Part shown: positions 60,257 through 63,386 of the stretch, one piece after another | Numbering within the stretch: the first letter of the stretch is position 1 | Layout: the number at the start of each line of letters is the position of its first letter | Assembly: GCF_003790525.1 (NCBI RefSeq) | Contig: NZ_CP033635.1 | Length of the DNA stretch: 64,000 nucleotides | Strand: one strand, 5' to 3' | Source of the DNA: Escherichia coli | GTDB lineage: Bacteria > Pseudomonadota > Gammaproteobacteria > Enterobacterales > Enterobacteriaceae | The notes under the pieces: model-generated | The model's input: the letters and a program-made list of their open reading frames with translations, nothing else | Databases searched by the model: none | What the model was told of the DNA's origin: nothing | Position numbers and translations under genes: made by a program

Positions 60257-61012
60257 AATCATCATTCATGTATCAGGAAGAGTTAAGGTTACAAGGGGGA
60301 CTCGATGGCGGTCAATATTTCACGACTAACGCCATTTTAAAGAAGCAGTGCGGTAGGTGGTTTCGAATGAGGGCTGGTGTTTTGGTACGTGGCACGCCAC
60401 TGCAATGTATTTATCCATCAGTACTTATTCAAAAGTACCTGGAAAAAATGCCCGCTATGCCAAGCGGGCAAATTGCTTACATGTGGAATTAAGTAATTAA
60501 CGATAAAGCCAGAGTATTATCATTTATCATGCCTTTTCATTTAATCAGGTTAATTACTCAAATCACTGAACTATTCTCTGTTCGCTCACTGATGATAAGT
60601 GAAGTGTCACAACCACGATTTGTATGTGGACCAATGCCGTAGAGTAAGGATGAAATGTCTCTGCCACGCCTTAAACATCTACTACTGACCAGACCACCCG
60701 TCGCAGGCAGATGAGTCTTATGAGCGTTACAGGAGTCTGGCTTTGCTCATTAATTAACGCTATTTAGATATAAATTTCTAACACTCGAAAAACGAATTCC
60801 ACTAATAAATCATAACGGTTGGTTTTTATCATACAGCGAAATAACTTTTTGTTTATTAAATTTAACATTCTTGTGCTAATTTAATTAAAAAGTCCATGCG
60901 TAGCAAGTGAAACAGTTAATGTCAGCAATTGTCTCAAATGAGCGGTTTTTTATAGTGACAAACAGTAATAACGTTAAACATAGCCATGTAGACATTAACT
61001 GAGGAATAGACA

Positions 61013-61189
61013 ATGTTAGTTAGTAAAAGTAATGGTCATAACGTTAATACAGTTTTGGGTAGTGGAAGTTGTAATGAAAACAATTCTTCCAACCCCATGG
61101 AGCTACTAGCTTATAGTATTATAAATTTAATTTGTAAGGAAGCTGCCTCAGGGATGTATCGCGGTGTTCTTGAAACTTTACAAAAATAA
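61013..61189 (+). CDS. Small hypothetical ORF (58 aa) in the ileY-adjacent accessory patch
   Basis: ATG with GAGGAA Shine-Dalgarno at 6-nt spacing; could be a gene fragment. Confidence 0.3.
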   Translation: MLVSKSNGHNVNTVLGSGSCNENNSSNPMELLAYSIINLICKEAASGMYRGVLETLQK

Positions 61190-61593
61190 TGTCTGAATGT
61201 ATATATCAAGAAGGCAACGCCTTTGTCATTATGGGAGCTGGAGAACAATTAAAACGTATTAAATATGATGTTGATGAAAATAACTTAAAAGTATTCAACG
61301 TACACTTTGATAATAATGAAGAGTTAGTTACTGATGGTGAGCCTGACGTAGTATGTTTAAGCAAGTAGGAGTGGGAAGATCTTCTCATTAAACTAAAGCT
61401 GGAGAACAAAGAAAATGCGGTTTCTGAAACTGACCTGTCATCGAATAAAAATAATGTTGATCAGTTTTTTGAATACCATAAAAGAAATGAATAGAACATT
61501 TTCGATAATATAAGAAAAAGTGATTTTCATGTTGGTTCACTTCAGCCAGGTAGAAGGCGTAGTGTTATTTTAGAAACGCCAACAAATGTCTGT

Positions 61594-62451
61594 GTGGAAC
61601 CACATAATTTATATGACAACCAAATATATAAAGTTTCACCTGTAACTAAAAACTCTCAGCAAGTTAAAGGCCACTATGGAGATAAATTGAAAGAAATGCA
61701 GATGTTCCTTAACCAGATAAGCAATGCACTTCAACAGGCTCCATCTTTGTCAGAGTCAAAGGAACACACCATAGATATTCAAAAAATAACGGATGCCTTT
61801 GTGAAGGAGTTCCGTGGGATATTATTTGATAAAAATGGAAATTCTTCAGAGCGTTTATTCAATTTTTATGAGTGCTGCTATATATTTTTACCAAGAGCGC
61901 AGCCTCAAGATAAAATCGAAAGCTATAATTCAGCACTGCAAGCTTTTTCCATCTTTCGTTCATCTACTTTGAATAATAATGATGTAGGGTTTAATTTCAA
62001 ATTATTCCCAGAAGTCAAACTGCCTGGGGAAAATCTTGAAACGGTATTCAAATACAAAAAAGGAAGTTTTGTCCGGGAGATAGCCAGAATTAACATTGCT
62101 CTACAAAAAGGAGAGGGTGGTTTATATAATTTAGGTGGGTTGGATTTTAAGGGATGCTTCTTTTCTGGACAGAACTTCAGTAACTATGATATTCAATATG
62201 TGAACTGGGGGACGTCATTGTTTGATCTTGATACTCCATGTATTTTTAATGCGCCTGCTTACAACAAGAGTAATGAAAAATCATTAGAACGCGTCAGCGA
62301 AAACGGTTTAAGTGGAGTCTTGTCTGATCGTAATAAAAAAATAAAACTCATCACGGGCGTGGCACCATTCGATGATATTTTATTTATGGATGATGACTTT
62401 GATGATCCTTCCACTAAGGATGATCCCGTGGAGAATAGTCCCCTTGTATAA
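61594..62451 (+). CDS. Hypothetical protein with a pentapeptide-repeat (A[D/N][L/F]xx) segment
   Basis: 285-codon ORF (GTG start; first in-frame ATG 34 codons later). Residues NLGGL-DFKGC-FFSGQ-NFSNY-DIQYV-NWGTS-LFDLD show 5-residue periodicity. Low-GC, AT-rich context. Confidence 0.45.
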   Translation: MEPHNLYDNQIYKVSPVTKNSQQVKGHYGDKLKEMQMFLNQISNALQQAPSLSESKEHTIDIQKITDAFVKEFRGILFDKNGNSSERLFNFYECCYIFLPRAQPQDKIESYNSALQAFSIFRSSTLNNNDVGFNFKLFPEVKLPGENLETVFKYKKGSFVREIARINIALQKGEGGLYNLGGLDFKGCFFSGQNFSNYDIQYVNWGTSLFDLDTPCIFNAPAYNKSNEKSLERVSENGLSGVLSDRNKKIKLITGVAPFDDILFMDDDFDDPSTKDDPVENSPLV

Positions 62452-62769
62452 AGTTCTAAAAGCAGTTTTCAATGATAAATAAATGGCGATTTTTACAAAG
62501 AGATAATAACGTAGATTGAAATAATATGTATTATTGATTGAGTAAACGGGATTATTCTTCACACTGCATCCATTTTGCTGTCACTACCAAAGTAAAAGGG
62601 GCTGCGATTTCACGTAATCCCTTGATTTATTTGATAAGTTGGCGGTGTCTGAACTGGTGCTGTAATTGGTTGAAATATTTCATCTAATGTCTGGTTCAAC
62701 TTTCCTTAGCTGCTTGAAAGTTTTTTGATCTTACCCAGCAATACCAGCGTTACGGTGCACCACGCCTGA

Positions 62770-63048
62770 CTGAATAACTGCGTGCTTAGAGTTACCACTG
62801 CAGCGCATAACCGTGGCAGCAGGCCCGGACAGAACAAACGGCTCAGGACATTATCGGTAGGGGACGCACTGCTAGTCTGTAAACTGAACCGACTGGGGCG
62901 CAGTATGTGGCATCTTGTCGTGCTGTTGGAGGAGCTGTGCGAACGTGGTATTAACTTTCGTGCTCTGGCCCAATCTATATTTGCCCAACAATGGGGGGAC
63001 GGAAGCTGTAAAAGTAAAACAATCTGCGATCTCAGAGTTATTGTGTGA
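62770..63048 (+). pseudogene. pinH: Truncated serine-recombinase DNA invertase (Pin/Hin family) remnant, pinH-like
   Basis: LLVCKLNRLGRSMWHLVVLLEELCERGINFRALAQSI aligns with the recalled Pin core ([37 protein letters not shown]). The N-terminal catalytic Ser region and C-terminal HTH are missing. Confidence 0.6.
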
Positions 63049-63386
63049 TTTTTATGTGAGCAGAAGATATTCATCAGAAACGATTATGTAAATCATTTTA
63101 TTTTGCCGACTGCCTGATTGTCGAAAGAAAAGAATACGCCCGTGTTTCCTGAATAGATTGACTTTTTTATCCAACCACACTTCAGCGCACTGCGTTTAAA
63201 AAATGCCTCATTCTTATGCGGAATATCATCATTTCATCATGATGTCTTTGATGAGCGGTGAACACAATACACTTGCGCTGTCTCTTCAGGATGAATCCCC
63301 TGGTCTGGTGCCTGTGGGCTGATGTTGCAGCAAAGCTAAGGTCGCTTAAACGCTACTCAGTATTCACTTTTCAGAGGATGAAATTT

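Follow-up and report, generated by a model that had tools for sequence, protein, structure and literature searches.

The window examined here is a 64,000-nucleotide stretch of the Escherichia coli contig NZ_CP033635.1 (assembly GCF_003790525.1). The 3,130 bp that follow its tRNA gene ileY (positions 60257–63386) hold a dead gene, ypjCB, scraps of an IS3-family transposase and of a phage-type invertase, pinH, and the region upstream of the autotransporter gene ypjA. This segment is in all probability an old, vertically inherited filling of the recombination-prone interval between ileY and ssrA, which is bounded by two facing tRNA-type attachment sites. Nothing in it works as a mobile element, and of the parts nearby only ileY, ypjA and, in this strain, ygaQ are working ones. 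The initial annotation had described an old genomic-island or prophage remnant integrated at the tRNA. The features on which it relied (a tRNA, low GC, a cut invertase, fragmented open reading frames (ORFs) and an autotransporter gene) are all present, and foreign composition, variable presence and mobile-element debris speak for an old remnant; integration at ileY is the part that has to be given up. The locus thus serves as an example of gene debris piling up between two integration hot spots and as a correction, since a low-GC patch beside a tRNA alone does not make an island integrated at that tRNA; it is of little importance in itself.

A variable block between glaH and ssrA

The RefSeq record of E. 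coli SMS-3-5, NC_010498.1, was used as the reference and its annotation was converted to window coordinates; positions 56000–64000 of the window are identical to it save for one A fewer in the A-run at 61182–61186. On the minus strand glaH, which ends at 57035 in the RefSeq annotation, is followed by ygaQ (57372–59624), an intact gene for an alpha-amylase-family glycosyl hydrolase of 750 aa according to the ORF, RefSeq and Pfam (Alpha-amylase_C above the cut-off, Alpha-amylase just below it). Then come ileY on the plus strand, the segment and ypjA, and beyond the window, in NC_010498.1, the rest of ypjA, a gap of 160 bp, the 3' end of ssrA and smpB. Thus, ileY and ssrA point at one another from the two sides of the segment, and the ssrA 3' end lies about 4.6 kb past the window. 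The locus is already known: all of its pieces are in the RefSeq annotation, and the K-12 literature names it. E. coli K-12 carries the same genes in the same order (ileY-ypjC-ypjB-pinH-ypjA) between glaH (csiD) and ssrA; SMS-3-5 differs in lacking CP4-57 between ypjA and ssrA, in its intact ygaQ and in its own set of ypjCB lesions. In K-12, ypjC/ypjB and pinH are annotated as pseudogenes and the CP4-57 prophage lies between ypjA and ssrA.

The segment is far from uniformly present. At least 80% of it was found in 3,016 of 5,426 complete E. coli genomes (56%), the sample used throughout; in a further 1,100 (20%), B2-type strains such as Nissle 1917, glaH is joined to ssrA and the whole block is missing, while the remaining genomes carry partial deletions or IS insertions in the segment. 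The comparison with strains without the insert that had been proposed was made. In strain 25POL, and identically in Nissle 1917, ssrA follows glaH after about 680 bp. The homology of 25POL to SMS-3-5 runs to window position 57247 and resumes 9 bp past the ypjA stop codon, so that the variable block extends from 57248 to about 67964 and comprises, within 10.7 kb, ygaQ, ileY, ypjCB, the IS3 scrap, the pinH scrap and ypjA. In 25POL and Nissle 1917 the block is replaced by about 320 bp (locus L003, 13248–13567) matching neither SMS-3-5 nor E. albertii. B2-type genomes lack ileY and ygaQ together with ypjCB, pinH and ypjA, so that about one fifth of the complete E. coli genomes have no ileY here; in strains W and B it was lost through IS-mediated deletions (PMC3032704).

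The base composition of the block is likewise foreign. The segment has 37.8% GC, and the 271 equal-sized windows placed in 1–57140 have a minimum of 45.0% and a mean of 52.3%. The segment thus shows neither the uniform presence nor the core-like composition that the initial annotation had named as refuting it. That annotation had placed the low GC on the 3' side of the tRNA, in contrast to the flanking core genes; the low GC also covers the ygaQ side (57248–60180), which it had missed and which has 36.5%. Codon usage, which it had proposed to examine, agrees with the composition: ygaQ (GC 0.379, GC3 0.305) and ypjCB (0.349 and 0.302) use ATA 28 and 25 times per 1000 codons, against 0–10 in 16 flanking core genes (GC 0.476–0.598, GC3 0.474–0.712), and for ypjA the values are GC 0.498, GC3 0.490 and ATA 11.8 per 1000 codons. 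From these ATA frequencies, ileY, itself the gene of a predicted AUA-reading tRNA, is seen to lie among AUA-rich genes. In K-12, H-NS is reported to bind the spacers on either side of ileY (ileY-ygaQ and ypjC-ileY), and Hha to bind near ileY and ypjC (PMC3946193, PMC2408971). By analogy, the AT-rich DNA of this strain is probably H-NS- and Hha-bound too, which fits silenced AT-rich DNA.

E. albertii served as the single outgroup species. It has ygaQ (as a 59%-identical YgaQ homologue at the same position) and ileY but none of ypjCB, pinH and ypjA; its gene order is ssrA, a P4-type integrase scrap, paralogues of ykgR/ykgM/ykgO, the ileY flank, ileY, ygaQ and glaH. The homology between the two species covers ygaQ through ileY to about 60566 and on the other side ends about 5 nt after ssrA. 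By these alignments, ygaQ, ileY and the 310 bp that flank it are common to both species at one and the same place, and the filling between this flank and ssrA is species-specific. It is also worth mentioning that the corresponding filling in E. albertii CP117650.1 (locus L015, 6993–9047), with an N-terminal P4-type integrase scrap (at about 7143–7240) and paralogues of ykgR, ykgM (L31) and ykgO (L36), has the appearance of a separate, decayed island at ssrA within this interval.

The age of the block was assessed from synonymous divergence (dS) and its ratio to nonsynonymous divergence (dN/dS) in three strains whose alleles differ by up to about 10% in nucleotides. For the block genes dS was 0.08–0.18 (ygaQ), 0.10–0.17 (ypjCB) and 0.08–0.13 (ypjA), and for the core neighbours 0.14–0.18 (glaH) and 0.10–0.12 (lhgO). 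Since the block genes have the same dS as their core neighbours, the block has been co-inherited vertically since these lineages diverged and is no recent arrival. The dN/dS values were 0.01–0.05 for glaH and 0.02–0.05 for lhgO, 0.08–0.15 for ygaQ, 0.21–0.34 for ypjA and 0.46–0.68 for ypjCB: ygaQ is under purifying selection, ypjA under moderate and ypjCB under weak constraint.

From this anatomy, distribution, divergence and set of boundaries and lesions we infer the following order of events, including the truncation of genes by insertion sequences. ygaQ and ileY would have stood beside glaH already in the ancestor that E. coli and E. albertii share. Early in the evolution of E. coli, the ypjCB, invertase, IS3 and ypjA pieces may then have gathered in the space from ileY to ssrA, and, before the phylogroups separated, deletions, probably IS-mediated, would have trimmed both ends of the invertase. 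Afterwards the block would have been inherited vertically, with wholesale deletion in B2-type strains and, in other lineages, interruption by new islands at ileY or ssrA. Several points weigh against this reconstruction. Extant genomes do not reveal in which order the parts were acquired, the outgroup is one species only, and the 59% identity of ygaQ between E. coli and E. albertii leaves room for independent acquisition of diverged alleles at one spot. For ypjCB, pinH and ypjA the ancestral state might in principle be that of B2, which is unlikely for ygaQ and ileY, and the role of IS3 in the truncation of the invertase is drawn from adjacency only.

The YgaQ family is tiny: besides the E. 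coli protein and the E. albertii homologue, a 35%-identical homologue is encoded on a human-gut metagenome contig (L016), where it adjoins InvH-like and invasin/intimin-like genes. ygaQ has an internal stop in strains cq9 and NT1F25 and is cut by an IS3 element in ET761; in K-12, too, it is a pseudogene.

ileY and ssrA as attachment sites

A single tRNA was detected by ARAGORN at 60181–60256 on the plus strand, with anticodon CAT; it scores 71.7 bits against the Rfam tRNA family, the only family matched in the Rfam search, and is labelled tRNA-Ile in RefSeq. It is ileY, an intact gene predicted to encode the AUA-reading tRNA-Ile2 with a lysidine-modified CAU anticodon. The function of ileX and ileY, the two AUA-decoding tRNA genes known in K-12, is to read AUA after lysidine modification of CAU. 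The 'Met' label given by ARAGORN is the usual mislabel for ileY (PMC3032704), and the rare-codon role of the gene is cited in PMC2408971. A promoter-like sequence, TAGATA-16-TATCAT, lies at 59948–59975, about 205 nt upstream of ileY, and the same hexamers are listed as the constitutive ileY promoter of K-12 (PMC3946193).

ileY is also a real attachment site, empty in this window. Phage 186, SpLE1-like elements and ter elements are published as using ileY or ileX, and in at least 437 of the complete genomes the match to the window breaks off right at the 3' end of ileY, where a CP4-like island of about 48 kb with an integrase begins. In NT1F25 and cq9 this island is flanked on one side by a hybrid ileY and on the other by a displaced copy of the 47-nt 3' part of ileY, by which the core of the attachment site is placed at 60210–60256 (plus strand) in the window. 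The order in NT1F25 is ileY, the island, a tyrosine integrase gene, the 47-nt copy, the flank that begins at window position 60257, ypjCB, the pinH scrap, ypjA and ssrA; its ileY carries four substitutions in the T arm, compensatory in the stem, and hence represents a hybrid site. Because real insertions thus sit between ileY and the 60257 flank, the segment is chromosome outside attR.

It is from this side that integration of an old genomic island or prophage at ileY, with later loss of its integrase and attR, becomes very unlikely. ileY is a bona fide attB for the elements just named, pinH is closest to the invertases of P2-like and myovirus phages, and the segment is low in GC and variably present, all of which speaks for such an origin. 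However, a real insertion at the same tRNA is recognisable by its integrase, its 47-nt repeat and the hybrid arm of the tRNA, and it leaves ypjCB outside attR. The elements at ileY and ileX (phage 186, SpLE1-like, ter and the NT1F25/cq9 island) resemble the segment in adjoining the same tRNA, in atypical composition and in variable presence, yet they possess a tyrosine integrase, a 47-nt direct repeat and an in-tRNA junction, of which the segment has none. The absence of a visible integrase or att repeat, already reported in the initial annotation, was borne out, as neither is annotated or detected between glaH and ssrA. The direct repeat of the ileY 3' end that had been expected further downstream does not exist from glaH to beyond ssrA: the 3' ends of ileY and ssrA (25 nt, at most 3 mismatches) each occur once in 48 kb, and a general repeat search was empty, while the ileY 3' repeat of NT1F25, serving as the positive control, was found. 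The first 310 bp past ileY, moreover, are conserved in E. albertii, which is without the rest, and by this the ileY insertion is largely refuted. ileY itself lies inside the variable low-GC block, so that the loss in B2-type strains takes ileY and the low-GC ygaQ along with the segment; the core-like dS and the phage-like DNA of only about 170 bp add to these objections.

An entry at the other end of the interval, which would make ypjCB-pinH-ypjA the remnant of one or more elements that had entered at the ssrA 3' end and were stranded after loss of the integrase and att repeat, is improbable, though somewhat less so than integration at ileY. The right edge of the block is 150 bp from the ssrA 3' end, a known hot spot (CP4-57 in K-12, Fels-2 and SopE-phi in Salmonella), and the E. 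albertii homology breaks off about 5 nt past ssrA, where that species has the P4-type integrase scrap. Fels-2 and SopE-phi are invertase-carrying P2-like phages, and the Fels-2 invertase is among the closest matches of pinH. Unlike the ssrA islands, however, the block has no integrase and no ssrA 3' repeat, and B2 strains and SMS-3-5 have the 150 bp past ssrA in common, so that the breakpoint is not at the att core. A non-phage gene, ypjA, also separates the pinH scrap from ssrA, and further traces of phage genes are missing. The filling of the interval by vertical inheritance of older debris is preferred here to an entry at either tRNA-type gene.

The native 3' flank of ileY, the 310 bp at 60257–60566 (no strand assigned), was delimited by alignment with E. 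albertii (blastn, 80% over 106 nt). It contains an imperfect hairpin of 32 pairs at 60355–60440 and a GC-rich hairpin at 60449–60470, which, taken on the minus strand, resembles an intrinsic terminator in the terminator scan; the promoter and terminator scans as a whole gave predictions no commoner than in shuffled sequence. E. coli and E. albertii have about 90% identity in the double hairpin (60355–60470), while the adjoining ygaQ is only 59% identical at the protein level. Of ten pairs with substitutions, nine can still form (GU changed to AU or GC), and in the four sequences compared no pair has changed on both sides. The folding z-score is close to -2.4 for each of the two strands; no match to an Rfam family was obtained.

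Decayed genes within the segment

The invertase scrap, pinH, occupies 62809–62979 on the plus strand and is a 57-codon internal piece of a serine invertase of the Gin/Hin/Cin/Pin type. The 88-aa ORF that contains it (62782–63048) matches positions 47–102 of the 145 of Pfam Resolvase PF00239 (E 4.8e-9, 36.9 bits, cut-off 23.3) and residues 38–95 of the 193 of Gin (E 6e-14), and pinH matches residues 38–94 of the 185 of the Fels-2 invertase with 68% identity (tblastn, 5e-20). Its RefSeq counterpart, at 62812–62979, is a 'recombinase family protein, missing N- and C-terminus'. The best protein matches of pinH include the Fels-2 invertase, and Fels-2 integrates at ssrA. The 57 codons have 65–70% amino acid identity to the central catalytic domain of the invertases of Mu, P1, P7, Fels-2 and e14; unlike these, pinH keeps only 31% of the gene. 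Alignments begin at residue 38, which leaves out the N-terminal region with the active-site serine (about residue 9–10), and end at residue 94–95 of 185–193, so that the C-terminal half of the E helix and the C-terminal helix-turn-helix DNA-binding domain are missing as well. A permissive six-frame search found no other invertase parts in any frame. In contrast to the loci of the complete enzymes, there are neither crossover sites nor adjacent tail-fibre genes; a repeat search found no inverted repeats fit as crossover sites near 62400–63400. pinH is equally cut in all five genomes examined, including alleles only 90% identical to the window, and therefore its decay predates the split of these lineages.

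The scrap precedes ypjA by about 400 bp and has the same orientation, which could suggest a working invertible switch for the autotransporter gene in the manner of Hin and fljBA. This is next to inconceivable: the loss of the catalytic serine region and the DNA-binding domain already refutes it, no inverted repeats surround the ypjA upstream region, and the orientation of that region is the same in all five of the genomes examined.

The description of the segment as a prophage remnant applies to the invertase scrap of about 170 bp and to nothing else in the 3.1 kb. Phage-like DNA is confined to window positions 62820–62961, which share at most 83% of their nucleotides with the invertase genes of P2-like phages and of E. 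coli myoviruses. Directly 5' of pinH, about 70 nt at 62731–62797 (plus strand), a piece missed in the initial annotation, share 85% identity (E 1e-7) with an IS3-family transposase gene annotated as a pseudogene on plasmid NZ_LR882059.1 and correspond to the N-terminal region of OrfB. The ypjA upstream module begins 28 bp past the 3' end of pinH. This adjacency suggests that the invertase was cut by IS activity on one side and by the junction with the ypjA module on the other.

The three ORFs at 61013–61189, 61189–61368 and 61594–62451 are pieces of one pseudogene, ypjCB (61013–62451, plus strand; DUF5507 and DUF5508 in Pfam, also recognised by NCBIfam, 'internal stop' in RefSeq). An intact allele of 492 aa is found in strain JNE151685; it scores 959 bits against NCBIfam NF050179 (cut-off 650), and both Pfam domains are found in it. 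Compared with this allele, to which it is 95% identical in DNA, the interrupted window copy has a 1-bp deletion in the A-run 61182–61186, TAG codons at 61366–61368 and 61492–61494, and a 15-bp deletion near the 3' end. ypjCB, dead in this window, is intact in many strains. The frameshift accompanies the two stops only in the window sequence, in which the run is A5; the A6 of NC_010498.1 is the sole difference across 8 kb, and it could be a homopolymer sequencing difference or reflect another assembly version.

A search of 1.84 billion representative proteins gave no relatives of YpjCB beyond its own cluster and fragments of it. Of 426 database matches, the best 120 all have at least 89% identity, and the named ones among these are from E. 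coli or Shigella; on this showing YpjCB would be an orphan gene product restricted to Escherichia/Shigella. A scan of the genome collection with strict peptide patterns retrieved only two contigs, both evident E. coli contamination in unrelated assemblies. Short YpjCB-coding contigs with 75–99% identity (L013, L014) are filed under a Planococcaceae metagenome-assembled genome and an Arthrobacter agilis assembly, and these records are probably contaminated with E. coli DNA. Seemingly 'divergent' YpjCB fragments of 56–76% identity do not come from other species; their sources are a short contig from a metagenome and an assembly full of frameshifts. The idea that YpjCB is a secreted effector with pentapeptide repeats, comparable to PipB2 of Salmonella, was rejected as well, Pfam showing only DUF5507/DUF5508 and a sub-threshold CTD4, with no remote homologues. 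The structure prediction, made from an 11-sequence alignment, had a mean pLDDT of 32.6 and was unusable. The function of YpjCB may be linked to the adjacent adhesin or to host interaction. The dN/dS ratio between intact alleles is 0.68. Two leads are given a low probability: YpjCB may be a genuine fast-evolving protein, and the double hairpin beside ileY may be functional, for instance as a structured 3' trailer or small RNA, or as a site bound by a protein and connected with the expression of ileY or with integrases that target it.

ypjA and other parts of the window

ypjA (EhaD) starts at 63387 on the plus strand, one base past the end of the segment, and runs off the window, which holds its first 204 codons (63387–64000). 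The full gene in NC_010498.1 is intact, with 4,569 bp encoding 1,522 aa, and the Pfam domains of the protein are ten AIDA repeats, Pertactin and a C-terminal Autotransporter beta-domain, in agreement with the literature, in which YpjA/EhaD is an AIDA-type autotransporter adhesin. The upstream region at 63007–63386 (plus strand), which includes a 39-aa hypothetical ORF annotated in RefSeq at 63203–63322 on the plus strand, is about 89% identical to the ymgJ-ycgI locus adjoining minE, and this duplicate is present in 5,321 of the 5,426 genomes. At the ymgJ-ycgI copy (locus L017, 5001–5350) only the C-terminal barrel of the autotransporter gene survives.

Elsewhere in the window, the interval from nrdH to ygaM holds, at about 43637–45490 (L001, 7638–9491), a gene of the carboxymuconolactone-decarboxylase family and one for a PdxR/MocR-like regulator. 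This insert is present in SMS-3-5 and 25POL and absent in cq9 and NT1F25, and is thus another small variable segment. A tRNA cluster at 25767–26359 consists of tRNA-Ser(GCT) followed by four tRNA-Arg(ACG) genes and is presumably the serV-argV array.

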